Shown piece after piece: positions 8,718 to 29,141 of a stretch of DNA of 64,000 nucleotides. This DNA is from Spirochaetota bacterium. Lineage in GTDB: Bacteria > Spirochaetota > Spirochaetia > CADAEX01. Below the pieces are notes generated by a model. The model was not told the DNA's origin. It was given only the letters and a program-made list of their open reading frames with translations, and ran no database searches. The stretch lies in assembly GCA_009786125.1 (NCBI GenBank), contig WQTU01000139.1, forward strand, positions 8,483-72,482. Reading direction: 5' to 3'. Each line of letters starts with the position of its first letter. The stretch's first letter is position 1. The position numbers and the translations under genes were made by a program.

Positions 8718-9788
8718 TTAGCCCCCATCTCCGGCTTTTCCTTGTTTTTTCTTCCTCTTCTGCGTCTCTTCTGTCTTGGTCTCAAGTTCAATAAATCTAT
8801 CAAAATCACTTTTGAATAGTTTGTCCTGTACAATGCGATATTTTTCAAATTCGGTTTCTGCATGTTTTTGGGCAATTTCTGCGGAGACCTTTCCGGCATC
8901 ACTTAAAATTTCACGGTCTGTTGCCGCAATGAAGCGGTTAAGCCGGGTTTCCCAATCACTCATAGTCATGGGAATACGCCGAATAGCCATATCTTCTGCA
9001 ATATCCAGATAGGCGTTAACAAGTCGTTCAAGTTGCTTCATTTCAAATTCAGTTAAGTAATTTTTAGCAACAACAACATCGTATTTTTGGATTTTTCCTT
9101 TTGGAGCGTCATTCCAAGAAGTTAAACCCATGTGCTGTTTTTCGGAATTGGCGCGTTCGATAATTAATTCCGCGGCTGTATGACCATGAATAGCCCAGTG
9201 AAGTTTATTTTGCACAGTAGCAAAAAAACGTTTGGTCGCAGCGGCAGTTACATCATAATCAACGGAAGTAGCATAAATATCAGTAATTTTCTGATAGAAT
9301 TTTCGTTCGCTTAGGCGTATTTCTCGGATACGTGCCAGTTGTTCTTCAAAATACTTGTTTGTTAATATGCTGCCGGATTTCAGACGTTCATCGTCCATGA
9401 CGTAGGCTTTAATCGTAAATTCTTCAATTATGTTTGTTGCCCATTTGCGAAATTGAACAGCTCGTTCAGAGTTTACTTTGTAGCCGACAGCAATTATGGC
9501 TTTTAAGTTGTAATGCTTTGTATCATAAGTTTTGCCATCTGAAGCAGTTATCCGGAAATTCCGGATAACTGCTTTTTCGTCCAATTCACTATCAGCAAAT
9601 ATTTTTTTTAAGTGTTCGTTAATAGTACGAACATTTACATCATAAAGCACAGCCATCATCTTTTGCGACAGCCATACGTTTTCGTCAGCATATATTGCCT
9701 CAACTCCATCTTTGCCGCTTGCAGCAATAAAAGTTAAATATTCTGCAGCAGAACTGCGGATAGTGATTTCTTTTTTTGGGGATTTCAT
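8718..9788 (-). CDS. RhuM-family (virulence protein RhuM) DNA-binding protein
   Basis: The sequence IRNFRITASDGKTYDTKHYNLKAIIAVGYKVNSERAVQFRKWATNII matches the RhuM family, which is commonly embedded in type I R-M loci. Confidence 0.75.
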   Translation of the reverse strand: MKSPKKEITIRSSAAEYLTFIAASGKDGVEAIYADENVWLSQKMMAVLYDVNVRTINEHLKKIFADSELDEKAVIRNFRITASDGKTYDTKHYNLKAIIAVGYKVNSERAVQFRKWATNIIEEFTIKAYVMDDERLKSGSILTNKYFEEQLARIREIRLSERKFYQKITDIYATSVDYDVTAAATKRFFATVQNKLHWAIHGHTAAELIIERANSEKQHMGLTSWNDAPKGKIQKYDVVVAKNYLTEFEMKQLERLVNAYLDIAEDMAIRRIPMTMSDWETRLNRFIAATDREILSDAGKVSAEIAQKHAETEFEKYRIVQDKLFKSDFDRFIELETKTEETQKRKKKQGKAGDGG

Positions 9789-9816
9789 AGATTCACCTTT
9801 AATTTATTCCACTCAC

Positions 9817-10530
9817 TCATTGACTTTTCCCCCTCATAGAATATCTCACAATCCATTTGCCGGTTTTATCAGCACCAACACGCTCTATAACCCCTGATTT
9901 TTTCAGTTGAGCAACATTGTATTCCACTCTACGTTTAGTTATTTGAATGGTACCTGCAATTTTTTCAGCAGTAATTTCAGGGTTTTCAATCATTAAGGCA
10001 ACAATTTTCGCTTTTAATTCATCCAATCTATAATTTACACCACCATTTACACCACCATCTAATGCTTCTTCCCTTTTATTGTTATTTCTGATATGAAAGC
10101 AAATTGAAAACATAGTTGCCAAAATATCAAATTCGGGCTCAGGAAGGTTATCGGCAATGCAGCCGCTTTTCATTTTTTCAATACCTCTTCCCCAAGCTTC
10201 AATTTGCCCGGAACGAAAATAATATTTTCCTCTAAAGCTGATGGCATTCGGGTGCAGGCTTATCTTTATGACAATATAATCTAAGCTTTTTTCTGTGTAC
10301 AAATTGACATCAGCTAAAATCCCCATTGTTGAGCGAATTTTATTAGGAAGCTCTTCCAACAATTTTGATGCATTTGATATTCCGACAACTACACCACGAT
10401 TGTTTTTGCCAATTTCAAGAACACCTCCCTGTGCATTAGCAAAACCGCAAATCCACTTCAGGTATTCGTCGCGCCAAGTCTCTTTCCATTCAACAATCTG
10501 ATTTTCTCGGCTTTTAACTTTTTTATTCAT
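9817..10530 (-). CDS. AlbA_2 (Schlafen-like) domain protein with C-terminal winged-HTH
   Basis: N-terminal [27 protein letters not shown] is AlbA_2-like. A C-terminal HTH is present. There is a 4-nt overlap with hsdM. Confidence 0.65.
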
Positions 10531-12068
10531 ATTTTCACCCGTTTTAGGTTTTGCAAAATAGCTTTGTTAAGCCTTTCTTCTTCTTTTAATTGCGCCTCAA
10601 ATTCTGCCTTTAAGCTACTGAACCGTTCCTTAAAATCAAAGTCATCTTCTTCATCCGGAAGCCCAACATATCTGCCCGGTGTTAATACATAATCAAGTTC
10701 TTTGACACGCTCTATATTTGCAGAAAAACAAAACCCTTTTACATCTTCGTATTTTCCTTTAAACTTTCGCCATTCGTGATAAGTTGAAGCGATTTTTTTA
10801 ATATCATCTTGCGACAGCTCTTTTGTTCTGCGGTTAATCAAATGTCCTTCATTGCGTGCATCAATAAACAGAATCTCGTTAGTCCTGTTTCGACTACCTC
10901 CGTTAGCTTTATTGCGGGATAAAAACCACAAACAAGCAGGTATTTGGGTATTCAAAAAAAGCTTGCCGGGAAGATTAACAATACAGTCAACAAGCCGCGC
11001 TTCGATCAAAGCTTTGCGAATATCGCCCTCGCCCGAAGTTTTGGAAGTGAGCGAACCTTTTGCCAGAACAAATCCGGCAGTGCCGCTTGGGCTTAAATGA
11101 TAAAGAAAGTGCTGGATCCACGCATAGTTTGCATTCCCGACAGGGGGAACACCATACTTCCATCTGCCGTCTTTGCGAAGCAGATCCCCGGACCAGTCAC
11201 TGTCATTAAACGGCGGATTGGCAATAACAAAATCTGCCTTTAAATCTTTGTGCGCGTCATTCAAGAAAGAGCCTTCGTTATTCCACTTGACCTGCGAGCT
11301 GTCAATGCCGCGAATAGCAAGATTCATTTTTGCCAGGCGCCATGTTGTCTGATTACTTTCCTGACCAATAATGGATATATCGCTTATTTTACCTTTATGC
11401 TCTGCCACAAATTTTTCTGATTGCACAAACATACCGCCGGACCCGCAGCAAGGATCAAATACGCGGCCTTTGTATGGCTCAAGTATTTCTACCAGAAGTT
11501 CAACAACACTTCGGGGAGTATAGAACTGGCCGCCTTTTTTTCCTTCTGCAAGAGCGAATTCACCTAAAAAATATTCAAACACATGACCAAGCACATCTGC
11601 ACTTCGTGCTTTCGCGTTTCCAAGAGCAATATTTCCAATCAGGTCAATTAATCCGCCAAGGTTTGTGGGATCCAAATTGCCGCGCGCAAATACTTTTGGC
11701 AATACATCTTTCAGCGATGGATTATCTTTTTCGATTGCATCCATTGCATTATCTACATCTTTGCCTATGGTTGGCAATTTTGCCTTAGATTGCAGATATG
11801 TCCAGCGGGCAACTTCGGGAACAAAGAAAACATTTTCTGCTTTGTATTCATCTTTGTCTTCGGGGTCTGAGCCAGCGTATTCGCCTTTTTCGCTTTTTAG
11901 TTTTGCATAAAGTTCTTCGAAAGCATCTGAGATGTATTTTAAAAAAATCAGCCCGAGAACAACATGTTTGTATTCAGCAGCGTCGATATTTTTTCTTAGT
12001 TTGTCGGCAGATTTCCAGAGCTGCTTTTCGATTGGTTCGTTACTGATGTTTTCTTTAGTCTTTGCCAT
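10527..12068 (-). CDS. hsdM: Type I restriction-modification DNA methyltransferase subunit HsdM
   Basis: AdoMet motif [12 protein letters not shown] and catalytic motif IV NPPFN are present. The N-terminal HsdM_N-like region is present. Confidence 0.9.
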
Positions 12069-15069: not shown

Positions 15070-15930
15070 CTAATACCTATAATATAGAACTCCAAATTGC
15101 TGTAATCGACCAATTCTGTCATGCGTGTTGGGGTGAGTTGAATACAGAGCTTTCAAAAATGATTCTTGTGGCTCACTTGTTCCGATGGCATCCAAACCTT
15201 TTGCTAATTCAAATCCATAACCTAACTCAGCGGCATATTTGTCGGCATCATATTCATTTTCCCGCGATGACCACATTAAAAACAGCATACAAAATTTTGT
15301 CCAAAGCCATATAATAGCAGCGAAAAACAATCCTATAATAACAGTACCAAAAGAACGACGTCTAATCCCGGAAATAAGAGAAAAAGCACCTATTATTGTG
15401 TATATTAGTTTTATGATTAGAAGTAATGTAGTTAGAATAAAATTGCCACCCCCGATTAAAAGCTGAATCTCATTATGACGATACGCTAAATGTGCTACTT
15501 CATGTGCTAAAATTCCTTGAATAACATCATCAGGTAGCTGAAAAAGCCCCTCGGTTACACAAATTGTCCTTCGCCCGATTGCGTAAGCGTTTGGTTCGGG
15601 GGAATAAATTACTTTCAAAACTATTTTATTTGTAAGCTTTGGTGTTTTTCTTTTTGCTTTATTGTATACAATTTCCAGCAATGGAATCATTCGAATTCTC
15701 ATGTCAACTCTTGTCATTTTTCTGGCTCCAGCCATTAAGCAGAGAATCCATTCGCCGATTGAAGAAAAAGCAATAAATATTGACAGGATATAAATAATGA
15801 CTATGACATACAGAGAATGAAAACCAATACTAGCGAAAAGTCCAATTATGATTAGCGCATTTAGGATAAAAAAAATAATTGTCCCAATACTTGATTTTTT
15901 AAATATATTTTTTGCTATATCCATACTCAT
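15070..15930 (-). CDS. M48-family (HtpX-like) membrane zinc metalloprotease
   Basis: HEVAH (HExxH) plus a downstream EYDADKYAAELG motif, with N-terminal and internal TM helices. It is the last gene of the operon, 16 nt after the FtsK-like gene. Confidence 0.75.
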   Translation of the reverse strand: MSMDIAKNIFKKSSIGTIIFFILNALIIIGLFASIGFHSLYVIVIIYILSIFIAFSSIGEWILCLMAGARKMTRVDMRIRMIPLLEIVYNKAKRKTPKLTNKIVLKVIYSPEPNAYAIGRRTICVTEGLFQLPDDVIQGILAHEVAHLAYRHNEIQLLIGGGNFILTTLLLIIKLIYTIIGAFSLISGIRRRSFGTVIIGLFFAAIIWLWTKFCMLFLMWSSRENEYDADKYAAELGYGFELAKGLDAIGTSEPQESFLKALYSTHPNTHDRIGRLQQFGVLYYRY

Positions 15931-15945
15931 TGTTACTGCCCTTTT

Positions 15946-18900
15946 CTAATCATGAATGGACAGACTTTTAATATATTTTTTTAATTCAGAATTATCGGGC
16001 ATGATATAAGGTTTATATTGGAAGATGTTTTTTACTCCATCAGAGTAATATACTGTATTATCTTTTAAACCAGCAACAGCAACGCCGTCAATGAGATTGT
16101 CAGCATCGCTGTTGCTCAAAGCAAAAATGATTCTTGCAGGAAATTTGGATAAAATGTTTTCACCATAATACATATTTTCCTTGACGCTTTGATATTCAAG
16201 CGAAGAAGTAATAAAATAAATTCCATAATTGGACCCATCGTCAATAAGCTGCAACAGTTTTTCTGAGATGGACAGGGATGGAGAGCCTGCATTTCCTGAT
16301 ACACCGAAATCAGCAAATTCATTTACGGACTTAGTGGCAATATTATCAATATATTCACTTTCATCTACGGACTCACCTTTAAACATTTTTTTTATAAGAT
16401 CAAGAAATTGCAGGTTCTTTATTACAACCAAAGATTGTTTATTATCCCCGCCCTTTTTTCTCTCTGAGTAAATTGTAAATAAATCGTTGATAATTTGAAT
16501 TATTTCTGTTCTGTTTTTTGCAGTCCTGAAACGTAAACTAAAACCGGTTAAACAATCATAAAATGCAGCCGAGATGCTTTCGCCTATTAAACTCTCTCCA
16601 TCTATACAGTAAACATTAGTATTTGTGTTCAGTAATGCTGAAAACATACAAAGGTTAGTAAGATTTTCAGCCATTTTTTCGTTTGCTCCACAAATTAATA
16701 AATTATGCCTTCTGCGCCGATCAAACTGCATAATAAATGGTGGTGCAACCTTTATGAGTGTCCCCATGTATATTTTTATAACGTTATCAGATGAAGAACC
16801 TGTTTTGCTTTGATTCAAATATTCAACAAGTGAAACCGTTCTGTTTCCTTCAAATATTTGCATCGTAGCTGGATAATCTGCATACTTTTCAGAAATAAGA
16901 GACAAATATTTTATTTGTGCTTTTTTTGAGCAATATGCGGCACGGAATCCTATATTATTTGATTCCATGTATTCCAAATTCATTACGGCTGTACCGATAG
17001 GGCCTTTCATCATTTCAATGATTTTATCATCGTTTCGATTTCCGAATAAATACCGTATATCATCCTCACCGCATTTTAAACCAATACGGATACGCATTTG
17101 TTCAATAATGCCATGCGATAGTGTCAGTTCACTTATAATTTTTGTAGTCTGCGTTGCCATCAAAAGATGAATGCCAAAGGCCCGACCTTCGGTGACGATC
17201 CGCTTAGTCAGTTCAGAGCAATTTCTGGCTACTTTGCGATTTGCAGAATCATTAAAAAGAATTTGAAACTCGTCCATGACAACTAAAATACGTGGCAGAG
17301 GATTTCCTGTGCCTTTTATATAATCAAAAAGGCTTGATTGTCCAGAATTTTTAAACAAGTCTCCACGGCGCAGCATTTCGCTGACTAGATTTTCCAATAT
17401 ACTCTCGCCAAATTCCTGCATGGCATCAAGCGCTAATAATTGAATATGCGGCAAATTGAAAGATTCATAAATCTTAAACTCTGTTCCGCTTTTAAAATCC
17501 ATCAAATACAAATGTAACTCATCTGGGCTATGGGATAACATACCACTCATAATTATTGTGTGCAGTAAAGTTGATTTGCCGGAGCCCGTAGCACCGGCGA
17601 TTATCCCATGATGTGATGAACCTTCTCCCAATATCAAGTCTACAGGGTTTTCGCCGTCGCCAATGCCCACGGTAATAGATAGTCTTTTTGCTGTTGAAGA
17701 AGAAAAAAGCGATGGACTTATAATGTCTTCAAGGGATAGACCTTTTTGTTTTAGGTTGGTAATAGCTTCTATGTATTGATTTATAAAATCGGAAATCCTG
17801 TTCTTTGATAGCTCAGGTGCTACATCAACTTGTAATCCAAAAGGTTGAAGAATATATTTTTTTTCAACATATTCCAACAAAGAACAGTGTTTTTTTATCT
17901 CTTCAAGATGTTCATCGATACTCTCATACTTTGAAAATAAGATATTTGGATTATGGCATATAACTGCGTAAATTCCGCATTTGCTGCCATTATTAAGAAT
18001 ATTTATTAACAACTCTATACTTCGGTTGTCAAAATTGCGGGGAAAATCAAATATAATCAACATAATAATAGGTTCGATACGATTAGGCGTGTTACTGTTG
18101 TATTCAATAATATTGGCAAAGCGATTGCCGAGCTTCTCCTGGATAAACTCGTCAATATATCTGTTTAATTTTTGCAGCGTACCTATCATAGCGTCTTGTG
18201 TGGTATAAATTTGTCCGTCAAAAATATCAGGAAGATTTTGGCGAAAATCCAAAAAAGGCGTTATGCTGTTACCCCGGCGTTCAGCATCAAATACGCAAAA
18301 TTTTATTTTTGAAACCGGAACAGAAGATAGAAAGCTCCACATTAAACCGTGTATAAATTTTATTACATGCTGCTGGACTGCTTCCGGGCAAATAATTAAT
18401 AGACTACTTTTTTCTTTAAGGTTAAAAATTGCCGGCAAAATAAAAGTTTGTGAATTTTGTGTTGTCAATTCAGTTTTTATTCTTGCAATCGTATTGTTAT
18501 CTGCTACTAAATCCAAAGGACAGGATAAATACCCTACTGAGATTTCCGCGGGGAAACTGTCTGTAACTGACGGAACTACACCAAAAGTATTGTTATACCT
18601 GTCAAGAGTATTTTTTATTGCACTTATTGCAAATTGAACTTTATCGGCATTTTCACTGTCTATCAGTTCACAGACTATAGAACCTAATAAAGCAATATTG
18701 CCGTGAAAACTACTGTAAGTGAATAAATAATTTTTGATATATCTTGATAAATCATTTCCTGCAAGGGCTTCATTATATGTTACCCGAAGATTGTAGTAGA
18801 GGAACATATCAACCGCTTGTTGGATGATAATACTGTTTTTTACATGGTAAGGCGGCAAGGCATTTCCTGACTGTACTCTATATACAATTACGGTATAAAC

Positions 18901-20226
18901 ACCAAGATTTTTTCCATTTTCAATAATGTTATTTATCGATGCTACATTTTTGTCTCCCAATGCTTCGGGAGAGTCGAAAACAATTAAAACCTTTATATCT
19001 GGTGTTGCCACTGTATTATTGCAAATACTCAGTTTTTCTAATGTTTCCCTTATTTCCTCATTGGATGTTTTTACTCCTCCATTAAACAGTTCCGGTATTT
19101 TTTTGATAAAATCCATATATGAAGACACATTTTTTCCCTGACCTTCTGAATCTATTATGCTGAAAGTCAAATGTGTAACCGGGGCAAAAGCAATAAAACT
19201 CTGTATTATGGAGCTAACAAGTTGGTTTTTAAGATTGCTATTTACCGTATATTTTACAAGTAAATTCAAATTATCGCTTAAAGAAAATACAAGAGGAAAC
19301 CTAAGTAATTTACTTTGTGAAATAATGGCCGCACATTTATCTTTAATAAGTGAAAACAAAATCTTGGAACTCACAAATAATTCTAATGGATAGTCAATAT
19401 TCCCTAAGACAATAGTATCATCCCATGCACAATAGCTTGATGTTATTCCTGTAAAGTTACTAATATAGCGTTCATTAATTGTTTTTAATGAACCTAACAG
19501 ACTATCAGGTAAAATCTTATCTAACTGTTCACAAATCTCATCAGCCAATATTTCTACGTTGCTTTCATACCTTGATTTTATTTTAGACAGTTCTGCTTGA
19601 TACTTTGATTCTATTTCCTCAGTTTTTTTGGCATGAGCATCTTTCTCAGCTTGTGTTGAATCATTGACCAGTTCAGCTATTGTTTTTTTGATTTCTTCCA
19701 TTAAATTTTCTAGTCTTATTTTCAGAACAATTAAATCTTCATAGTCTTGTTTTCGTTGTTTTGAAAAGGCAAAGTTTATACCATCAAAAAGAGCAGGTAA
19801 TTTCTCTTTTGAATATTTTAATGAAAGTGATTCAAATTGTTTTTTAACATTTTCTAAGGCTAAAAAAATGTCAGGATCATCAATGGTGGTTATTTCGGCT
19901 TTTTTTCCCAGCTCCTCTGTTTTAAGATCTCGCGCTTTAACATAATATTTATCAGCATTTGCCAGAGAAGTATCCAATGCCAATACTTCTTTATATATTT
20001 TTTCAGCATTGTTCTTTAATTCGGCACCTTTTTTTCTAGTAACATTAGCACTACTATCATATTGCCCAGCGGCATTTGACATGAATTGATTATATTGTTC
20101 TTCCAAGCTTTTTTTTGAGTTTTCAAAATTATTCCATAATTGCTGAATTCTCTGATCAGATTGTTCTGCAAAGGAATTAATGTTATTAATGAGTCTCAAA
20201 ACTGTTTGATATGTAATTTTACTCAT
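15946..20226 (-). CDS. Giant FtsK/SpoIIIE-family multi-domain ATPase with N-terminal coiled coil (EssC/EccC-like, no TM or FHA)
   Basis: One intact FtsK-type P-loop domain (HHGIIAGATGSGKSTLLHTII; Walker B RILVVMDEFQ) is flanked by three degenerate FtsK-like domains (VLIVFDSPE, IIMLIIFDFPRNFDN, SLVVIKNLQFLD). About 250 aa of N-terminal coiled coil. No hydrophobic TM segment. Confidence 0.7.
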   Translation of the reverse strand: MSKITYQTVLRLINNINSFAEQSDQRIQQLWNNFENSKKSLEEQYNQFMSNAAGQYDSSANVTRKKGAELKNNAEKIYKEVLALDTSLANADKYYVKARDLKTEELGKKAEITTIDDPDIFLALENVKKQFESLSLKYSKEKLPALFDGINFAFSKQRKQDYEDLIVLKIRLENLMEEIKKTIAELVNDSTQAEKDAHAKKTEEIESKYQAELSKIKSRYESNVEILADEICEQLDKILPDSLLGSLKTINERYISNFTGITSSYCAWDDTIVLGNIDYPLELFVSSKILFSLIKDKCAAIISQSKLLRFPLVFSLSDNLNLLVKYTVNSNLKNQLVSSIIQSFIAFAPVTHLTFSIIDSEGQGKNVSSYMDFIKKIPELFNGGVKTSNEEIRETLEKLSICNNTVATPDIKVLIVFDSPEALGDKNVASINNIIENGKNLGVYTVIVYRVQSGNALPPYHVKNSIIIQQAVDMFLYYNLRVTYNEALAGNDLSRYIKNYLFTYSSFHGNIALLGSIVCELIDSENADKVQFAISAIKNTLDRYNNTFGVVPSVTDSFPAEISVGYLSCPLDLVADNNTIARIKTELTTQNSQTFILPAIFNLKEKSSLLIICPEAVQQHVIKFIHGLMWSFLSSVPVSKIKFCVFDAERRGNSITPFLDFRQNLPDIFDGQIYTTQDAMIGTLQKLNRYIDEFIQEKLGNRFANIIEYNSNTPNRIEPIIMLIIFDFPRNFDNRSIELLINILNNGSKCGIYAVICHNPNILFSKYESIDEHLEEIKKHCSLLEYVEKKYILQPFGLQVDVAPELSKNRISDFINQYIEAITNLKQKGLSLEDIISPSLFSSSTAKRLSITVGIGDGENPVDLILGEGSSHHGIIAGATGSGKSTLLHTIIMSGMLSHSPDELHLYLMDFKSGTEFKIYESFNLPHIQLLALDAMQEFGESILENLVSEMLRRGDLFKNSGQSSLFDYIKGTGNPLPRILVVMDEFQILFNDSANRKVARNCSELTKRIVTEGRAFGIHLLMATQTTKIISELTLSHGIIEQMRIRIGLKCGEDDIRYLFGNRNDDKIIEMMKGPIGTAVMNLEYMESNNIGFRAAYCSKKAQIKYLSLISEKYADYPATMQIFEGNRTVSLVEYLNQSKTGSSSDNVIKIYMGTLIKVAPPFIMQFDRRRRHNLLICGANEKMAENLTNLCMFSALLNTNTNVYCIDGESLIGESISAAFYDCLTGFSLRFRTAKNRTEIIQIINDLFTIYSERKKGGDNKQSLVVIKNLQFLDLIKKMFKGESVDESEYIDNIATKSVNEFADFGVSGNAGSPSLSISEKLLQLIDDGSNYGIYFITSSLEYQSVKENMYYGENILSKFPARIIFALSNSDADNLIDGVAVAGLKDNTVYYSDGVKNIFQYKPYIMPDNSELKKYIKSLSIHD

Positions 20227-20254: not shown

Positions 20255-21379
20255 TTACTTCTCATACTTGCATTTTTTGCCGCATTTTTTTGAAAAACCA
20301 ACTTTTAGTGAAGTCGTAACCTGAAGGGGATAGCTAAATATCTCAACCATTTCGCCGCCGATTTTCGGATTACTTGTATTGCTTACAAGCGTATATTGCG
20401 TAAGATTATTCAATAAACGCGGGATATAACCCTCATTGTTTGCATTAAAAATATCGAGTATCAGCTTGATACCGATTGAAGTAGCAAAATTTATATCGAC
20501 TGATATACCAGGCTCAAACTTTACTCCTTCGGTATTTTCTTGATTTGAGTATACATGATGATTGGCCTCGGCTCTTGACGAAAGGCCGCTGCCATCGCCT
20601 AAAGCGCACTCATAACATGGCAAGCCTTTTCCATACAGGTGATAAAAAATCTCACCAGCAAAAGCCCTTTCCCAAAATCCTATAGAAACAAAAGAGGATT
20701 GATAGTATATGCTGATTCTATTTGTGTACACGTCCGCAATGCGGTTGTCAGCACAGCCGATAAAAACTGTGTTTCCAGCTACACAAAACGAATCCATAGT
20801 TTCTTTTGGCAAATTCTGTACGATGCCTTCAAAAGTAATTACCTCTGCACTTGGATTAATATTAAGAATCTTTCTTTTGAGAGCATATACTTTAAAATCA
20901 CCAACATCTTCTATTCCGCATTGATGGCGGCAAATATTATGATATTCTACTATATCTGCATCAACCAAAATAAAATGCTTTACTCCAGCCCGTGCCAACT
21001 CCAGGGCAACCAGGCTGCCGACAGAGCCGCAGCCTAATATTATTGCTTTTTTTTGGCACATTATATCAGATTCTAATATCCCCTTGTTACGTGAGAATAT
21101 ATTTTGATAGAGGCTGTATATTTCACATTTTATTTTTTTTCCATAACTATAAAAATCTATACCTGCACTTGTAATAACTCCACACAGCTTGTTCTTGTTA
21201 CAATTACTGCCTTTCGGTAACACTTTTCCTAGAAGCTCTCCTTTACTTTCCAGTTCGGGAGGAAATACATTATATATGGCAGATTCTTTGTAATACCTGC
21301 CATATATATTCCTTTCATTTTGAGTACTTGCCTGTATGTCTGATATGAATACCGTCTTTTCCATTTGTGGTTTTTTCAT
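20255..21379 (-). CDS. ThiF/MoeB/E1-like adenylyltransferase (ubiquitin-activating-enzyme-like)
   Basis: Rossmann nucleotide loop KKAIILGCGSVGSLVALELARAGVKHFILVDADIVEYHNICRHQ is present, with downstream CxxC (CYEC) and conserved Cys candidates. Confidence 0.8.
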   Translation of the reverse strand: MKKPQMEKTVFISDIQASTQNERNIYGRYYKESAIYNVFPPELESKGELLGKVLPKGSNCNKNKLCGVITSAGIDFYSYGKKIKCEIYSLYQNIFSRNKGILESDIMCQKKAIILGCGSVGSLVALELARAGVKHFILVDADIVEYHNICRHQCGIEDVGDFKVYALKRKILNINPSAEVITFEGIVQNLPKETMDSFCVAGNTVFIGCADNRIADVYTNRISIYYQSSFVSIGFWERAFAGEIFYHLYGKGLPCYECALGDGSGLSSRAEANHHVYSNQENTEGVKFEPGISVDINFATSIGIKLILDIFNANNEGYIPRLLNNLTQYTLVSNTSNPKIGGEMVEIFSYPLQVTTSLKVGFSKKCGKKCKYEK

Positions 21380-21381
21380 TC

Positions 21382-22368
21382 CTATAAATCCTTGTTTTCA
21401 TTTCCTATACCGAACGCACGCAGTAAACCAGACTTAAATGTGACATCTGCGGGGTTAAAGTCTGTTAATAAATTGGTGAATAGCCCTGGGGTATATAAAT
21501 AGCAATCATCGTCATGAGAAAAAACAATCTGCTTCTTATGTGCAACATATATAAAGTGAATCATTGTAACAATGTTACTTGACCCTTTATGAGATAAGCT
21601 TAAAACTCCCTTGTTTTGTTCAATTTTCAAAGCCAATTTTCGATTTTCAGAAAAATATGTTATATCGTCCAGCAAAGAATCAATTAAAAAATCTCGATAT
21701 TTTTCAGCCTCTTCTGGCTTGTAATCATCTTTAGACAGTGTAGTTTTCTGTAATTTTCCTTTGATGCTAACAAGTAAACGTAAAAAATCTATTTCCGGTT
21801 TGTCAAAGGTTTTATTTCCGGAATATAATTTGTCAGCGTAACTATTTATATATCCAAGTGATTTTTCCGCATTTCTTAACGCAAGTAAATGTTCAGGGAT
21901 TAAGTTATCACCCACTTTATAAGCGATTTTAGTATATTTAAGGGGCCATGCTACATGATATGGCGTAATGCGGAACTTTGGATCAATATTAACCAAAACA
22001 GAAACAGCGCCATTGGCAGACATTTTAGCATAATCAGAGTTAGTTCCATCGTCTGTGGAAGAAAACTCGTCAAAAGAACCCGGATGCCTGTGCCATAGCC
22101 CAATTAAAGTCAATTTTGCTTGATATATCTGTACTAATTTGTTTATTAAATGTTCTGTATATTTTTTATCGTACTCGAAGTATGCAACTTGAAAAATCGC
22201 CTTTGGGCCTGGGTCTATTGCTTCTATGACATACCAATTCCCATTCTCAAAGCAGCCTAAAAATATTCCGCCGGTTTCGGTTTTTATTTTTTCTGAGGTT
22301 TCCGAAATAACCGCCGTGTATGCGCGATTAGAAAAAATCACCTGCATAATTTTCCCCCGTTGATACAT
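21382..22368 (-). CDS. JAB/MPN (JAMM) metallo-isopeptidase-like protein with ~200-aa C-terminal extension
   Basis: Perfect JAMM motif H-x-H-x7-S-x2-D in LIGLWHRHPGSFDEFSSTDD, with an upstream conserved Glu (VIEAID). Confidence 0.8.
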   Translation of the reverse strand: MYQRGKIMQVIFSNRAYTAVISETSEKIKTETGGIFLGCFENGNWYVIEAIDPGPKAIFQVAYFEYDKKYTEHLINKLVQIYQAKLTLIGLWHRHPGSFDEFSSTDDGTNSDYAKMSANGAVSVLVNIDPKFRITPYHVAWPLKYTKIAYKVGDNLIPEHLLALRNAEKSLGYINSYADKLYSGNKTFDKPEIDFLRLLVSIKGKLQKTTLSKDDYKPEEAEKYRDFLIDSLLDDITYFSENRKLALKIEQNKGVLSLSHKGSSNIVTMIHFIYVAHKKQIVFSHDDDCYLYTPGLFTNLLTDFNPADVTFKSGLLRAFGIGNENKDL

Positions 22369-22431: not shown

Positions 22432-22674
22432 TCAAATAAATCGATCTCGATTCGCTAAACAAAAATTGACAAATGCATCTTTTTTAACAACAAGCTTCAC
22501 TGGAAATGGTAGCCCCTGGTAAACTAAAGAGAATATTGCTTCCACTGCTTTGTCATTTTCAGCTGCCGCTAAAGCAGCAGGCCCTACTTTCTCCTGAAAA
22601 ATCTTTTGTATCTGAGGCCAATGCTCCTCAATAGTTTTCTCGATCTGCTTATTCAGCACATTTCCTAAATCCAT
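22432..22674 (-). CDS. Hypothetical small protein (80 aa) between E2-like and JAB genes
   Basis: ORF with tight packing. Mostly helical with a C-terminal beta-like segment. No C-terminal Gly. Confidence 0.35.
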   Translation of the reverse strand: MDLGNVLNKQIEKTIEEHWPQIQKIFQEKVGPAALAAAENDKAVEAIFSLVYQGLPFPVKLVVKKDAFVNFCLANRDRFI

Positions 22675-22692: not shown

Positions 22693-23208
22693 TTAGTACA
22701 CACCTTCTATTGCTACTTCGTCACTTACCTCTCCGTTGATCCACATTTCACACAACATTATCCATTTGCACGCCCAACTTAGAGAGGAGGCGGCTGATGT
22801 AGAACGAGTCTGCGATGCTTTAAAATATTTGGGGTCGGCAGTACATATAAAATACTCTTCGTTACGTCCGAAGTTATCGCGGTAAATATGCGGAAGCCCC
22901 AAGCCCAAACCCTTTTCAGGCTTAATCGGTAATGTTTTCGCTATATCAACGAGACGCGGTTTAACGGGCAAAATTTGAATTGAGCCGCCATACATACCTT
23001 CTTCTGCCTGGGGATGGGTATTTTTATAAATCAACATCAAATCCCAAACCATTCCGCCTTTTCCGGTTGGCTGAACCTTTCCGCGCCAATATAGCCTTCC
23101 CGAACCATCTTCGAGTTTATAGAGCTTAAACGATGGGAAATATTTCCCCATTGCCATCTGTTCAGCCTCTAACAAATCAGGGTCACTCTGATACCAATAA
23201 AATCCCAT
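22693..23208 (-). CDS. UBC/E2-like ubiquitin-conjugating-enzyme-fold protein
   Basis: YWRGKVQPTGKGGMVWDLMLIYKNTHP resembles the E2 W.G.I.GP..TPYEGG.F.L.I.FP..YP layout. LPHIYRDNFGRNEEYFICTAD resembles HPNIY..G.ICLD, with a candidate catalytic Cys. A strong RBS (AAGGAGG) precedes the start. Confidence 0.55.
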   Translation of the reverse strand: MGFYWYQSDPDLLEAEQMAMGKYFPSFKLYKLEDGSGRLYWRGKVQPTGKGGMVWDLMLIYKNTHPQAEEGMYGGSIQILPVKPRLVDIAKTLPIKPEKGLGLGLPHIYRDNFGRNEEYFICTADPKYFKASQTRSTSAASSLSWACKWIMLCEMWINGEVSDEVAIEGVY

Positions 23209-23209
23209 T

Positions 23210-23392
23210 TTAACCCCTCCTTGCCAATTTTCCGTCAGGCACCTGAATGGCTGTGTGCCCCTGTTCTTCTGCTTCGCTTTGAAATTCTACTTCACCGGAA
23301 GGGGTGACAACTACATCTTCTCCTCCGCGCAAGGCTGCTGCTAACGCACGGCGTCTTGCTGCGACAGCATCCTCATCCGCATTATTATTCAT
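23210..23392 (-). CDS. Small low-complexity protein (60 aa) ending in Gly; candidate Pup/Ubl-like modifier
   Basis: MNNNADEDAVAARRRALAAALRGG...GKLARRG-stop sits 1 nt upstream of the E2-like start. It is GC-richer than its surroundings. The C-terminal codons overlap the E2 RBS. Confidence 0.3.
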   Translation of the reverse strand: MNNNADEDAVAARRRALAAALRGGEDVVVTPSGEVEFQSEAEEQGHTAIQVPDGKLARRG

Positions 23393-23449
23393 ATTGAACC
23401 TCCTAAAATACTATATTGATGAATCAGTTACTGCTGAATAATTTCTTAA

Positions 23450-23680
23450 CTAGTTGTTGTTACCAGAAGTAACTATTACATCCGAATTATCATACTTTGC
23501 AGCTATTAAATCATTACGTCTTTTTGTAATAATAGCGGTATTAACTTCTGTTATGCGAATGCAATCAGTGAGAACATCAGAAGTAATACCCTCTTTTTTA
23601 TATGACAAGGAATCCTCTTTGATGTTTCCGATGATTTTTACAAGCAGCGACTTTTTCTTTTTTTTGATAACACCACCCAT
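23450..23680 (-). CDS. Small protein (76 aa), candidate beta-grasp/YukD-like ubiquitin-like protein
   Basis: Ubiquitin-sized. Hydrophobic periodicity is consistent with beta strands (SLLVKIIGNI, VLTDCIRITEV, SDVIVTSG). It ends ..TSGNNN. It lies 12 nt after the upstream gene. Confidence 0.3.
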   Translation of the reverse strand: MGGVIKKKKKSLLVKIIGNIKEDSLSYKKEGITSDVLTDCIRITEVNTAIITKRRNDLIAAKYDNSDVIVTSGNNN

Positions 23681-23692
23681 ACAAACTCTTGG

Positions 23693-24622
23693 TTATGCTG
23701 TCGCTCTTTCTCTAGGTTTTTTATCAAAATTTCTGATAATTTCACCATTAGCAGAAATAGTAACCACACTCTCGCGTAATCCTGCTTGAGCCGCTTTCTC
23801 GCCATTCTTAAGAACAGATTGAGCGTATGTATTGTCAAATAATTCGCTGCCTTGCTCGGCCAGCTTAGCCAAATCAACGCCCTTATTATTTTCCATAGCT
23901 AAGGTATATGCAAAATAGTCTCTCATTCGCCGAAGAGCATTTTCATCGCTTGCAATAATCTCATCACATTTCTTTATCTGCCTAAACCGCTTGATGAAAC
24001 GATATATGGTAATAATTGGACTTACAACAGCTAAAAAAAACCCAGAAATAATTCCCAAAAGAAAACCTCCCCCTATATCGCCATCGCGCCCCTTCGCACC
24101 TCCAAAGAAAGCACCTATCATTAATTTAACTATAGTTCCTAATGAAGCGCCAATGAAAACCAAAAAAATAGTGGCAAACACCATATCCTCGGGGAAATCT
24201 GAACCAGCAGTCAAACCTAAGCCAACAATCAAACCTAAAACAGCACCAACAACCATCCATATACGTTCTTTTTTTACTTGCTTCCTGAAAGCCGTAACAT
24301 TATCAATATTTTCCTGTACTAAAATAGCGGTGCATTTATAACACAAAGCAGTTCCAGCATAGTCACCGATACTTACGCCATATGTATCATAACAATCTCG
24401 ACAAATACCTGTTCCACATCCCCTGCATAATGCTGCTGCTTGTTTTGACGGATGGTGACCACACTCAATACCTGCTTCCAATACACACTCGCGGCATAAA
24501 CCTGCATATTTATTACCAGGTTTGCTAAAAAGATTAACACAATTTCTACAAATCCCCTTTCCGCATCTTTTGCATTGCGCTACTGCTTGTTCGTCTTCAT
24601 GAAAATAACATCCAATTGCCAT
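23693..24622 (-). CDS. Membrane protein with N-terminal tandem zinc-ribbon/B-box-like Cys clusters
   Basis: Cys clusters C-x2-H-x8-C-x2-C-x4-C-x2-C and C-x2-C-x7-C-HH-x9-C-x2-C-x4-C-x2-C are followed by 3-4 Gly-rich TM helices and a ~110-aa C-terminal domain. Confidence 0.6.
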   Translation of the reverse strand: MAIGCYFHEDEQAVAQCKRCGKGICRNCVNLFSKPGNKYAGLCRECVLEAGIECGHHPSKQAAALCRGCGTGICRDCYDTYGVSIGDYAGTALCYKCTAILVQENIDNVTAFRKQVKKERIWMVVGAVLGLIVGLGLTAGSDFPEDMVFATIFLVFIGASLGTIVKLMIGAFFGGAKGRDGDIGGGFLLGIISGFFLAVVSPIITIYRFIKRFRQIKKCDEIIASDENALRRMRDYFAYTLAMENNKGVDLAKLAEQGSELFDNTYAQSVLKNGEKAAQAGLRESVVTISANGEIIRNFDKKPRERATA

Positions 24623-24702: not shown

Positions 24703-24975
24703 CTAAAATTTAACACGGCTGTATGAATCCAGTGATTCTGCCAATCTGTTCAGTTTTGGTTGCGCTGCTTCAAGCGGACCAATAGGCGATTCAATTAAAG
24801 CCGCAATTTTCACCATTAGATTACGGTATTGCTCTCCCTGATAGTCATTCCATTCAGCCGACTGTTGTGATGTCTGTCGGACATCTCTTACGGCTTTTGC
24901 CAGCTCTTTAATGATCGCACCAATATCAGCATTAATTTTACGAATTGCCTCTGAATTTGCTTTGACATTTGACAC
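24703..24975 (-). CDS. WXG100-like small helical-hairpin protein (paralog 1)
   Basis: 90 aa. Central ..AEWNDYQGEQYRNL.. Starts xxVxxxSEAIRK like its paralogs. Confidence 0.45.
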   Translation of the reverse strand: MSNVKANSEAIRKINADIGAIIKELAKAVRDVRQTSQQSAEWNDYQGEQYRNLMVKIAALIESPIGPLEAAQPKLNRLAESLDSYSRVKF

Positions 24976-24989
24976 AATATTCTCCTTTT

Positions 24990-25265
24990 CTATAAGTTGA
25001 CTTTTTCGTATTCTTCAAGCGTTTTGTAGATTTCAACCAGTTTCTCAAGGATCTCAAATAAAGCATCCTTTGGTTCCCGCAATTTATCTGTACACTCTTT
25101 CACGATAATTCCGAGCTGATTATATTTTTGATCTCTCCATCCTTGCCCTGCATCTTTGTAGCTTTGGTCCAACCTTAATGTTGACTTGCTTAAGTCCTGT
25201 ATAACTTCATTGCATATTTTTTCCGCTTTTCTTATAGCTTCTTTTCCGACTGAAACCTGTGCCAT
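24990..25265 (-). CDS. WXG100-like small helical-hairpin protein (paralog 2)
   Basis: 91 aa. Central ..GQGWRDQKYNQL.. N-terminal KEAIRKAEKI parallels paralog 1. Confidence 0.45.
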   Translation of the reverse strand: MAQVSVGKEAIRKAEKICNEVIQDLSKSTLRLDQSYKDAGQGWRDQKYNQLGIIVKECTDKLREPKDALFEILEKLVEIYKTLEEYEKVNL

Positions 25266-25286
25266 ACAAATTCTCCTTTAAAACTC

Positions 25287-26036
25287 CTAGAAATTCTCAC
25301 TTAAATACTTATCAACTGCAGCAATACATTTCTCAATATTGCCTACATTTTGTTCCGTGCCTGAAACTGCCTGTGTTTCAAATGATTTTGAAGCAGATAA
25401 CATTGTGTTTATATTGTCATTCATTTTTGCAAGGGAAGCATTCATTCTTTCCTGCTTATTTCTCAATCTGTCTAAAAACCTTTCAGTTGTGCGAAGTTCA
25501 TCTTCCTTTTTCGCTTTTTCGGCTTGTATCACATGTACTTTTTGTTGTAATTGTAAACCGCACTCTTTTAATTTGAATAATTCATTTTCTGAACTTCTGA
25601 TTTCAGACTCTGTTTGATATAATTGATTCCTTCTATCATCGATTTGCTTTTGGATTTTCTCTTTTACCTCGCCTTCTGCTCTTGCAGCGGCTTGTTCCAT
25701 TTCCGAAATTTGCTTCTTAATGTGCATAGCGTTTGTCTGATTAGCCGTTAAATCGTTTTGTGCTGATACCAGTTTTTGTTCTGTCGATTTTATTTCGTTA
25801 TTCATTTGATTTATTGTATCGGCAAGTCTATTTATTTCTGCTTTGTACTGATTAATTCTATTTGTTGTCTCCTCAATTTTTTGCTTGATTTTCTGCATTT
25901 CTAAGTCTGCGGATTTGGAAACAACAGATATTTGTTGCCCTATTCTTGTTGAAAAGCCCGAAATATCAATATAGTAATCATTAAGTGCGGCTTTTACTTT
26001 TGTAAGAGCGTCTTTTGAAACGCTAATTTCGGACAT
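25287..26036 (-). CDS. Coiled-coil protein (249 aa) with N-terminal WXG/LXG-like helical region
   Basis: Extended heptad-like Q/E/K-rich sequence. The N-terminus MSEISVSKDALTKVKAALNDYY resembles its small neighbours. Confidence 0.4.
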   Translation of the reverse strand: MSEISVSKDALTKVKAALNDYYIDISGFSTRIGQQISVVSKSADLEMQKIKQKIEETTNRINQYKAEINRLADTINQMNNEIKSTEQKLVSAQNDLTANQTNAMHIKKQISEMEQAAARAEGEVKEKIQKQIDDRRNQLYQTESEIRSSENELFKLKECGLQLQQKVHVIQAEKAKKEDELRTTERFLDRLRNKQERMNASLAKMNDNINTMLSASKSFETQAVSGTEQNVGNIEKCIAAVDKYLSENF

Positions 26037-26038
26037 AG

Positions 26039-26275
26039 TTAAACTTCCTCTGCCGCTATGGCAAAAAATTTATCTATTCCGGAACAAGCTCTTTCGCCGC
26101 TCTCTATAACGGTTTTTGATGTTTTTGCCAACTCGCCAATCCGTGCCTGCAGCGAAGCATAATTGCCATCGTTCCATATATCCCCAACTCTGTTGATTTT
26201 TTCACTTACTTTTCCGGTTGACAGTTTGAAAGCATCAAGCTCCTTTTTTATAGCTGAAGCGTGGTTAATTACCAT
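26039..26275 (-). CDS. WXG100-like small helical-hairpin protein (paralog 3)
   Basis: 78 aa. Central ..GDIWNDGNYASLQARIGEL.. (W-N-D-G). Confidence 0.45.
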   Translation of the reverse strand: MVINHASAIKKELDAFKLSTGKVSEKINRVGDIWNDGNYASLQARIGELAKTSKTVIESGERACSGIDKFFAIAAEEV

Positions 26276-26480
26276 CTGGTAACCTGCCTTTATCTACAGG
26301 AACACCATTTACTGGGAATTCATAAGCATCCTTGATCAATTCTTGGTCATTTATCTCTTCTAGCATGTGTTGAGCTAAAGCAAAGAACCCTTCTTTTAGC
26401 GACTTTGGGAGCACGTTATATTGTGACCAAAGCAAGGAAAACCGTGCTTTGGGAGATAAATTCGATAAATTTTGCATCAT
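26265..26480 (-). CDS. Hypothetical small protein (71 aa), first gene of the operon
   Basis: ORF with an 11-nt overlap with the next gene. A divergent promoter region lies upstream. Confidence 0.3.
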   Translation of the reverse strand: MMQNLSNLSPKARFSLLWSQYNVLPKSLKEGFFALAQHMLEEINDQELIKDAYEFPVNGVPVDKGRLPDGN

Positions 26481-26582: not shown

Positions 26583-26933
26583 ATGCTAGATCCGGCTATT
26601 CCTACTGTGAATGAAAGAATCCGACAGGTTCGTTCTGTTTTAGGGCTATCTCAGGTTAAATTTTCTTCAATTATAGCTCTGTCTAGCGGTTATATAGCTG
26701 GAGTAGAGACAGGTCGAATTTCTGTAAATAGCAGAATGATAAAACTGATATGTTCCTCCTTTAGGGTAAATGAATCTTGGCTGAGACATGGTGAAGGAGA
26801 GATGTTTTCAGAAGATATTATTGAAGATAAGCAGTTCAATAACCTGGTTAATACAGTACGGGCTCTGCCTCCAAAATATCAAGAGTTTCTATTCGAGGTT
26901 TTGGATATGCTGGTAAAACTGAAGGATAAATAA
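26583..26933 (+). CDS. XRE/Cro-C1-type HTH transcriptional regulator, divergent from the operon
   Basis: HTH ERIRQVRSVLGLSQVKFSSIIALSSGYIAGVETGRIS is present. A 102-bp shared intergenic region separates it from the 26480 operon start. Confidence 0.7.
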   Translation: MLDPAIPTVNERIRQVRSVLGLSQVKFSSIIALSSGYIAGVETGRISVNSRMIKLICSSFRVNESWLRHGEGEMFSEDIIEDKQFNNLVNTVRALPPKYQEFLFEVLDMLVKLKDK

Positions 26934-28525: not shown

Positions 28526-28819
28526 ATGGTAAATTTAGCACAAGATATAAAATCTATTTCTTACGTAAAGGCACATACTACCGAAATCGTAAATTATGTA
28601 GGGAATACAAAATCCCCTGTTGTAATTACTCAAAATGGGGAAGCAAAAGCAGTAATTATCGATATAGAAAGTTATCAAAAAACACTTAATGCAATACATT
28701 TGGCGAAATTATTGAGTTTTAGCGAAAAGGATATTAAGAATAAAAAAACAATAAATCACGAGGCTGCGAAAAAAATATTTAAAGAGACATTGGGTCGAAG
28801 AAACGATGCGAAAAATTGA
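28526..28819 (+). CDS. Phd/YefM-family antitoxin
   Basis: ...EIVNYVGNTKSPVVITQNGEAKAVIIDIESYQ is the Phd/YefM fold signature. It overlaps the downstream toxin by 14 nt. Confidence 0.7.
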   Translation: MVNLAQDIKSISYVKAHTTEIVNYVGNTKSPVVITQNGEAKAVIIDIESYQKTLNAIHLAKLLSFSEKDIKNKKTINHEAAKKIFKETLGRRNDAKN

Positions 28820-29141
28820 ATGGACACAAGATGGCGTAGATTCATTTAATGAAATACTTGAATATTACAAGAACAATGCCGGAGAAAGTGTTGCAAATAA
28901 TATATATGATAAAATAATCAAAAAAATAGATCTTCTGGAGAATGATAAAGTTAAAACAAAGCAGGTTCAGGAATTAAAGGATATCGGAATATTTGATATT
29001 TATGAAATTGTTATATATCCATGGAAAGTGTACTGCAAAATTGAAAATGACAACAAAAGCGCATATATAATGTTTGTGCTAGACGCAAGAAGAAATATAG
29101 AAGAAATACTGCTATCAAAAGTAATTGATAACAAAATATAG
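28806..29141 (+). CDS. RelE/ParE-family toxin
   Basis: 111 aa. N-terminus KIEWTQDGVDSFNEILEYY is as in ParE/RelE. It is paired with the Phd-like gene. Confidence 0.65.
   Translation: MRKIEWTQDGVDSFNEILEYYKNNAGESVANNIYDKIIKKIDLLENDKVKTKQVQELKDIGIFDIYEIVIYPWKVYCKIENDNKSAYIMFVLDARRNIEEILLSKVIDNKI

Follow-up and report, generated by a model that had tools for sequence, protein, structure and literature searches.

A small Ala-ended protein, p60, as the proposed modifier of a Cap2/Cap3-type E1/E2/JAB cassette

The window analysed here is a 64,000-nucleotide stretch of contig WQTU01000139.1 from a Spirochaetota bacterium. On its minus strand it carries a cassette in which genes for an E2-like conjugating enzyme, a JAB/JAMM metallopeptidase and an E1-like adenylating enzyme are followed by a gene for an EssC-like ATPase, and in which a 60-codon open reading frame (ORF), p60 (23392..23210), stands directly before the E2 gene. 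We consider it probable that p60 is the conjugatable modifier, the functional 'ubiquitin', of this Cap2/Cap3-type E1/E2/JAB module, and that it is a protein of about 50 residues that lacks the beta-grasp fold and ends in G-K-L-A. This reading is based on what was observed, namely conservation and synteny of the genes, the occurrence of fused and repeated forms, catalytic motifs that are intact, and enzyme homology; every chemical step is one that we infer from these observations.

The p60 gene and its conserved end

The proposed pre-modifier consists of 60 codons and a TAA stop, with the sequence MNNNADEDAVAARRRALAAALRGGEDVVVTPSGEVEFQSEAEEQGHTAIQVPDGKLA followed by RRG. Its encoded end is ...VPDGKLARRG, the final three codons being AGG AGG GGT (the extension R58-R59-G60, 23213..23221, minus strand), and a single base (A) separates the p60 stop from the ATG of the 171-aa E2-like ORF. 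The codons of R58-R59 (23216-23221) form AGGAGG, a perfect Shine-Dalgarno sequence 7-12 nt 5' of the E2 ATG, and the p60 start codon has an AGGAGG of its own 7 nt upstream. The first-pass annotation of this DNA had put forward two tiny ORFs as candidate modifiers, p60 and the 76-aa p76 (23680-23450, minus strand). Both ORFs are present as it described them, and its statement that p60 ends in Gly 1 nt before the E2 start, with last codons that double as the E2 ribosome-binding site (RBS), is accurate. It had also called p60 GC-rich and of low complexity. GC content is 0.50 in 23200-23399 versus 0.30-0.45 in the flanks, but low complexity is only a partly fair description, the Ala/Arg-rich stretch being a conserved helix.

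Homologous operons were compared in a set of 46 genome loci with an E2 homologue, mostly from gut Clostridia with a few metagenome-assembled genomes (MAGs) of other phyla; one of them, L018, comes from the cultivable Faecalibacterium prausnitzii ATCC 27768. The 60-aa ORF passed this conservation check, since a p60 homologue was found immediately upstream of E2 in 46 of 46 loci (49-100% identity), and a metagenomic homology search gave 120+ clusters of p60 homologues. The median dN/dS across 43 alignable 49-codon p60 cores was 0.16; between the window and one locus (L002), the protein core is identical, with dN of 0 and dS of 1.29 over 49 codons. Residues R13, R14, A16, A20, G33, I49, V51, P52, G54, K55, L56 and A57 are invariant. 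By these measures the p60 ORF is translated and strongly constrained, and the dN/dS result rules out a GC-rich spacer that is not translated.

The conserved end of p60 lies three residues before the encoded one. It reads I-x-V-P-x-G-K-L-A in close and distant relatives alike (signature phi-x-[VI]-P-x-G-K-L-A), corresponding in the window to I-Q-V-P-D-G-K-L-A (23222..23248, minus strand; Ala57 codon 23222-23224), and the motif was found once in the six frames of the 64-kb window. The stop codon follows right after KLA in 34 of the 46 loci, whereas 11 carry an unrelated extension of 3-4 residues (RRS, RGE, TTEV, FKEA, SSEV, KED twice, RED, KEG, GEA and GED) and one continues in frame into E2. 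Among 120 close metagenomic clusters, 22 end at KLA, 88 have 1-5 further, variable residues, and 10 carry longer stretches, a zinc ribbon among them. A nearly constant spacing separates the Ala codon and the E2 ATG (13-23 nt in 41 of the 46 loci), exceptions being the fusion in L001 and loci L011, L019 and L022. On this comparison the extension, R58-R59-G60 included, is a non-conserved, G-rich RBS spacer that is read through when no stop stands directly after Ala. The terminal Gly, the conservation of which across homologous loci the first-pass annotation had left to be checked, is not conserved as Gly60, and it is Ala57 of G-K-L-A that proved invariant. The suggestion that the 60-aa ORF serves as the modifier of the E1/E2/JAB set is thus supported by the comparative evidence, but the terminal Gly that had served as its cue appears to be an accident of the E2 RBS. 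We propose Ala57 as the mature C-terminus of p60 and the site of its adenylation by E1.

Precursor architectures bear on the same boundary. Seven close E2 homologues are natural in-frame p60-E2 fusions of the form ...VPDGKLA-[M/S]GFYWYQ... (clusters P0002, P0005, P0014, P0015, P0020, P0023 and P0024). A profile search of 1.84 billion representatives recovered 88 relatives, several of which combine a leader, 2-4 tandem p60 units and E2 in one protein (for example P0254, P0256, P0266, P0284, P0307 and P0319); each unit ends P-x-G-K-L-A and the next begins at once. Frameshift artefacts were ruled out as the source of the p60-E2 fusions, which occur in several independent clusters and in all distant poly-p60 forms in frame. 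These architectures would point to a released, Ala-ended p60 unit, by the logic known from polyubiquitin and ubiquitin-fusion genes. An N-terminal leader is also present in about a third to a half of close p60 homologues; it has the pattern M-x(3-15)-phi-x-[VI]-P-x-G-phi-[FL]-[AS], a degenerate version of the tail directly ahead of the core. The leaders suggest processing at both ends, or a remnant half-repeat. One such leader reads MISTFIKVPIGKLA and is followed by ADDD... (P0122-P0213; L002:7112-7153); the p60 of the window has none.

A p60-like module with an intact ...QVPDGKLA tail was also seen inside large proteins (P0283, P0297; L050:4277-6181), between an N-terminal vWA domain and a zinc ribbon with a C-terminal TIR_2 domain. 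The vWA-TIR genes adjoin helix-turn-helix (HTH) and protein kinase genes, and no E1, E2 or JAB was called on the contig.

The fold of p60 was modelled with AF2 on the natural fusion P0002, using a 68-sequence alignment (overall pLDDT 66). The p60 part (pLDDT ~60) has a helix at 3-20, strands at 25-27 and 33-35, a helix at 36-41 and a disordered tail; this secondary structure is predicted at low pLDDT, and disorder is clear only for the last ~7 residues. In the E2 part a helix, four strands and a long helix give the pattern expected of the UBC fold. Neither p60 nor p76 has a Pfam match to the ubiquitin-like protein (Ubl), ThiS or YukD families at E<=1. The p60 core of ~50 aa is tentatively described as an N-terminal helix, a beta-hairpin and a flexible tail, not a beta-grasp, and it may fold on binding. 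Scans of p60 with Pfam, NCBIfam and PADLOC gave no meaningful match, and its profile, compared with PDB sequences, returned only de novo TIM-barrel designs (0 significant stretches) and noise; the TIM-barrel matches were dismissed as mimicry of composition and of helix-strand pattern. A 45-aa ORF lies antisense to p60 (23304-23441, plus strand); the simplest account is that it is incidental to the GC-rich coding sequence opposite it, which is rich in Ala and Arg codons.

Enzymes of the cassette and the proposed pathway

The order B-box transmembrane (TM) protein, p60, E2, JAB, E1, EssC-like ATPase is kept in nearly all 46 loci. The E2-like conjugating enzyme (171 aa; 22693..23208, minus strand) had been called E2-like from its letters, and this holds: it matched the PADLOC CBASS E2 hidden Markov models (HMMs; E 9.6e-9), all its homologues are hit by Pfam PF26395 'E2-CBASS', and the top Foldseek matches of the P0002 fusion model are E2/UEV structures. 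The Foldseek matches are weak (E 0.1-2), although almost all E2/UEV, and are taken as supporting evidence only; an E2 profile search against PDB sequences found nothing. N63, H65 and P66 are invariant, and Cys122 is the candidate catalytic residue; these positions are intact and at least 95% conserved across relatives.

The JAB/JAMM metallopeptidase (328 aa; 21382..22368, minus strand) has Prok-JAB and CBASS JAB/Cap3-like matches (PADLOC JAB 1.7e-12), and its motif residues E26/E31, H93-x-H95, S103 and D106 are intact and at least 95% conserved across relatives. The listed ATG of the JAB ORF has no Shine-Dalgarno sequence. Met8 (22347) stands after AGAGGA and is the start that relatives conserve; it is therefore probably the true start, giving 321 aa. 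The third enzyme is an E1-like ThiF/MoeB-family adenylating enzyme (374 aa; 20255..21379, minus strand), with matches to ThiF (9.5e-25) and to CBASS E1-E2 HMMs (to 1.8e-25). Its conserved features, G116xGxxG121, R151/Q153, D211-N-R213 and C255xxC258 with C366/C370, are kept at 95% or above across relatives. Matches to the NCBIfam 6A-MBL cap2_3 and Cap3 models were below their cut-offs, and scans of the operon proteins gave no Ubl, ThiS, MoaD or YukD family match in any protein.

In the pathway that we propose, p60 would be translated with its RRG extension, which would be present only since the ORF reads through the E2 RBS, and JAB would cut it after Ala57. The same cut would, in relatives, free p60 from N-terminal leaders, tandem poly-p60 chains and p60-E2 fusions. 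The ThiF-type E1 would bind the extended tail and adenylate the Ala57 carboxylate, after which p60 would be passed to Cys122 of E2 and transferred to an amine on a target, possibly with the help of the B-box membrane protein as an E3-like adaptor. JAB could also reverse the modification.

Several points weigh against this pathway. The processing, activation and transfer of p60 are steps that we infer from sequence, and GKLA may be no more than a site of proteolysis or docking. The E1 thioester step is uncertain, as the usual crossover-loop position of E1, which lies between D211-N-R213 and the CxxC at 255, showed no conserved Cys; the E1 Cys of Cap2 is dispensable in vitro. The statement on fold is soft, resting on a low-confidence p60 model (pLDDT ~60), and a beta-grasp domain may hide in the C-terminal half of JAB, the N-terminal 100 residues of E1, or the ATPase.

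The alternative that survives best, which we nonetheless hold to be unlikely, is that p60 is not conjugated at all. It would act as an E2 partner or pro-domain (an inhibitor, chaperone or adaptor) or as a non-covalent assembly factor like YukD/EsaB, with GKLA as a linker, docking or cleavage site. Such a role would be consistent with p60 always lying beside E2 and sometimes being fused to it, with YukD and EsaB as small, non-conjugated proteins in EssC/WXG100 clusters, and with the p60-like module of the vWA-TIR proteins, which has no E1/E2/JAB nearby. A pro-domain leaves unexplained, however, why the free-standing gene stops at the invariant Ala in 34 of 46 loci, why whole units are repeated in tandem with the motif at each boundary, and why leaders end in the motif. 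It would also leave an active E1 adenylating enzyme without a substrate, and the p60 tail resembles that of a proven Cap2 substrate.

Conjugation through the encoded Gly60, with no trimming, was one of the two versions in the first-pass annotation. E1 enzymes classically use Gly, the window sequence does end in RRG, and Gly is the commonest last residue of the short extensions in close clusters (35 of 88). The extension is, however, absent from 34 of 46 loci and elsewhere ends in S, E, V, A, D or G; near-identical relatives end in RRS, RRD, RRA or GRN; and where units are fused or repeated, KLA is followed at once by the next one. Both the RRG of the window and the enrichment of Gly among extensions are explained by read-through of the G-rich Shine-Dalgarno spacer that encodes these residues, and this version appears very improbable.

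Nor do we give much credence to p60 as a substrate or export-signal carrier of the EssC/WXG100-like machinery, such as a small secreted peptide, with E1, E2 and JAB acting elsewhere. Even distant loci have genes for an EssC-like ATPase and WXG100-like proteins alongside p60-E2, but p60 lacks a WXG or helical-hairpin architecture, its coupling by fusion and by translation is to the E2 gene and not to the ATPase, and the ATPase has no TM segment; such a role is highly improbable.

It is scarcely credible that the modifier is instead p76, trimmed by JAB to the Gly of TSG|NNN, for although this protein is ubiquitin-sized, lies in the operon and has a Gly within the last 4-7 residues in all four homologues, it is confined to 4 closely related loci whereas E1, E2 and JAB are universal, matches only itself in a large protein database, has a Gly that cannot be aligned within unrelated tails, and gave an all-helical single-sequence model (pLDDT 69, pTM 0.35) with no fold match.

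p76 (76 aa; 23450..23680, minus strand) is a clade-specific accessory protein whose start codon lies 12 nt past the stop of the B-box membrane protein gene upstream; in other loci it is p60 that begins 30-150 nt beyond the B-box gene. At its N-terminus p76 carries a VIKKKKK patch; it ends in ...VTSGNNN and has no GKLA tail. Homologues were found in only 3 of the 46 loci, the closest ones (L001-L003), giving four sequences with that of the window; the self-match in a search of 5.8 billion proteins was an identical copy annotated as a hypothetical protein of a Spirochaetes MAG. The four sequences share an N-terminal VIKKK[KR]x and the segment A-I-x-x-R-R-x-x-L...N-[ST]-D-x-[IV]-V, and their C-termini (TSGNNN, VFGNKQNINY, FNSGDQP and FTGKNKNT) are unrelated. 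Pfam, NCBIfam and PADLOC scans of p76 gave no meaningful match, and Foldseek found no fold match for its model. The beta-strand-like periodicity that had been read from its sequence was not borne out by the single-sequence AF2 model, which has two helices and no strand; nor was its proposed identity as a ubiquitin-sized beta-grasp protein, given its narrow distribution, or the trimming of its tail to Gly. Residues 45-74 of p76 align with residues 4-33 of p60 (hhalign, probability 70%, E 4e-5), which suggests that p76 is a paralogue of the p60 head (helix and first strand) that has diverged and lacks the tail. It is not a modifier; it may be a regulator, a decoy or a lysine-rich acceptor.

Comparison with known modifier systems

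The closest enzymatic likeness is to CBASS Cap2/Cap3, as the best-scoring models for the E1, E2 and JAB of the cassette are those of CBASS and its E2 falls in Pfam 'E2-CBASS'. In CBASS the CD-NTase is recognised via a disordered C-terminal tail and not via a beta-grasp, and p60 likewise has a flexible, conserved tail, with a small residue at its end. The CdnD of E. cloacae ends in ...K-T-G-R-F-A, and its residues 375-381 lie in the Cap2 adenylation site, conjugated to AMP. The G-R-F-A of CdnD and the G-K-L-A of p60 share the pattern G-basic-hydrophobic-A. An Ala end is plausible for p60 because the enzymes are of Cap2/Cap3 type and the Ala-ended tail of CdnD is adenylated. The cassette departs from CBASS in encoding E1 and E2 as two proteins and in lying beside EssC/WXG100-like genes; its proposed substrate, of ~55 aa, stands alone and is also seen in tandem repeats or fused to E2. 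The matches of the operon proteins scanned included no CD-NTase and no CBASS effector family, and the cassette is therefore not a CBASS system.

Type I Bub operons (6E/DUF6527) resemble the cassette in having a modifier directly upstream of or fused to E2 and in multi-unit modifiers, and release by JAB is known for Bub and proposed for p60. In Bub, the BubAB Ubl-E2 fusion is cut by the JAB domain of BubCD after a conserved C-terminal Gly (PMC11601596). The BubA domains are beta-grasps ending in Gly, the Bub E1 and E2 form Tyr/Ser oxyesters and a DUF6527 protease is encoded in the operon, whereas the unit here is non-beta-grasp and Ala-ended, the E2 has an invariant Cys and DUF6527 is missing. 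In type II BilA, as many as nine residues that are not conserved come after the conserved Gly (PMC10557695). Bil, polyubiquitin and ubiquitin-fusion precursors are like p60 in that the conserved C-terminal residue precedes non-conserved ones, which in p60 too would have to be trimmed, and in head-to-tail repeats, which a dedicated peptidase would likewise free in the case of p60; they differ in that their modifiers are beta-grasps with a terminal Gly, and the Bil E1 is a multidomain IAD-AAD-CYS protein.

The label 'Pup-like' given to p60 by the first-pass annotation fits only loosely, for its size and non-beta-grasp character. Like p60, Pup is small (64 aa) and has no beta-grasp. The helix of Pup docks on the coiled coil of an ATPase; in the cassette, a helix stands at the N-terminus of p60 and a coiled coil at that of the EssC-like ATPase. 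Pup is, however, ligated via the side chain of a C-terminal Glu by the glutamine-synthetase-like PafA/Dop, with neither E1 nor E2. No PafA/Dop family was among the Pfam, NCBIfam and PADLOC matches of the operon proteins, p60 lacks a GGQ/GGE end, and the chemistry implied here is that of E1 and E2.

YukD, EsaB and TsxB share with p60 that they are small cytoplasmic proteins encoded with an EssC-family ATPase and WXG100 proteins. YukD is a beta-grasp and is not conjugated. In the T7SSc-j survey, T7SSa-j loci have membrane-bound ATPases, and its text does not mention ThiF or JAB; the ATPase of the cassette lacks a TM segment and is accompanied by a complete E1/E2/JAB set. More generally, p60 is encoded with E1, E2 and JAB as a precursor, repeat or fusion, as the beta-grasp Ubls (Ub, ThiS/MoaD, SAMP, BilA, BubA) often are, and unlike them it lacks a conserved C-terminal Gly and, in a model of moderate to low confidence, the beta-grasp fold. 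Operon classes 6a-6e of Iyer 2006 do not include a p60-E2-JAB-E1-EssC cassette. In the literature covered, which was incomplete and included Iyer 2006, Kaur 2020 and the T7SSc-j survey, no E1/E2/JAB cassette with EssC/WXG100 genes was described, and no Ala-terminated mini-modifier was found in literature of the same incomplete coverage.

The chemistry and precursor logic proposed here are already known; what appears new is the modifier family and its link to an EssC/WXG100-like cluster. The bacterial E1/E2/JAB systems known to date rely on beta-grasp Ubls, as in Bil and Bub, or, in CBASS, on a large enzyme's tail. p60 would be a third solution, implying that E1/E2 machinery needs only a suitable tail, which would bear on the evolution of ubiquitin signalling. 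'Ubl-less' E1/E2/JAB operons would gain a concrete candidate substrate and a searchable signature, phi-x-V-P-x-G-K-L-A. The constant EssC/WXG100-like linkage, together with a polymorphic toxin gene in some loci, suggests that covalent tagging is tied to type VII-like transport or to interbacterial or antiphage conflict in gut bacteria.

A bolder extension, which we regard as quite unlikely, is that p60 belongs to a new modifier class (~50 aa, non-beta-grasp, Ala-terminated, with poly-tag and E2-fusion precursors) and that the cassette's cytoplasmic EssC-like ATPase acts on proteins marked by its conjugation. As Pup does on Mpa, p60 would then dock by its helix on the coiled coil of the ATPase, and as a result of tagging the cargo, whether WXG100-like, toxin or phage protein, would be translocated, unfolded or exported. 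This would amount to a covalent-tag-directed branch of type VII-like transport or defence.

Neighbouring genes and distribution

The B-box membrane protein encoded upstream of p76 and p60 (23693..24622, minus strand) has three TM segments and, at its N-terminus, two B-box-like zinc fingers (a zf-B_box match at E 5e-4, which falls short of the Pfam cut-off), is conserved in 44 of 46 loci and is a possible E3-like adaptor. In one locus two tandem paralogues of it stand upstream of p60 (L038:8160-9781). Downstream of E1, the EssC/EccC-like FtsK-family ATPase (1426 aa; 15946..20226, minus strand) has an N-terminal coiled coil and matches TIGR03924 EccCa at 1.8e-34, which is far below the equivalog cut-off. 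Directly 3' of the ATPase, the last conserved cassette gene encodes an M48 zinc peptidase (15070..15930, minus strand; Peptidase_M48 2.7e-23). Because it is conserved in 24 related loci, the M48 peptidase is probably part of the cassette, as a second protease beside JAB. It was ruled out as the main, CAAX-like trimmer of the 3-residue p60 extension, being conserved where p60 has no extension.

Upstream of the B-box gene lies a group of genes for small helical proteins (24703..26480, minus strand): w90 (24975-24703, with a weak WXG100 match), w91 (25265-24990), w78 (26275-26039) and p71 (26480-26265), with the gene for a 249-aa coiled-coil protein, cc249 (25287-26036, minus strand), among them. 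Each of w90, w91, cc249 and w78 was detected in most of the 46 loci, and p71 was not found in any other of them. The WXG100 matches are sub-threshold in the window and weak in the distant poly-p60-E2 loci L047 and L048, where the cassette still has FtsK-family ATPase, WXG100, JAB and ThiF genes. In these two near-identical loci the gene after WXG100 differs (L047:2609-3939, 353 aa; L048:4402-5882, 403 aa), and the 403-aa allele carries an ADP-ribosyl exotoxin domain, a pattern as in polymorphic toxins exported by type VII systems.

Between E2 and JAB the window has an 80-aa ORF, p80 (22432..22674, minus strand), with a strong Shine-Dalgarno sequence (GAGGAGG). No homologue of p80 was found in the 46 loci, where the E2-JAB gap is usually 45-125 nt, and on this comparison p80 is a locus-specific insertion. 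A divergent XRE-type HTH regulator (26583..26933, plus strand; HTH_19 1.8e-6) was likewise not found in the other loci.

Near-identical cassettes (E2 66-89% identical) were seen in L001, L003, L006 and L041, binned to MAGs labelled Fibrobacteria, Phycisphaerales, Muribaculaceae and Bacteroidetes, in addition to many Clostridia. Either the cassette moves horizontally or some of the contigs are mis-binned. The flanks of the cassette in the window hold genes for RhuM, a Schlafen/AlbA_2-wHTH protein and a type I restriction-modification HsdM methylase on one side (8718-12068, minus strand) and a Phd/ParE toxin-antitoxin pair on the other (28526-29141, plus strand), a setting that fits a conflict or defence island.

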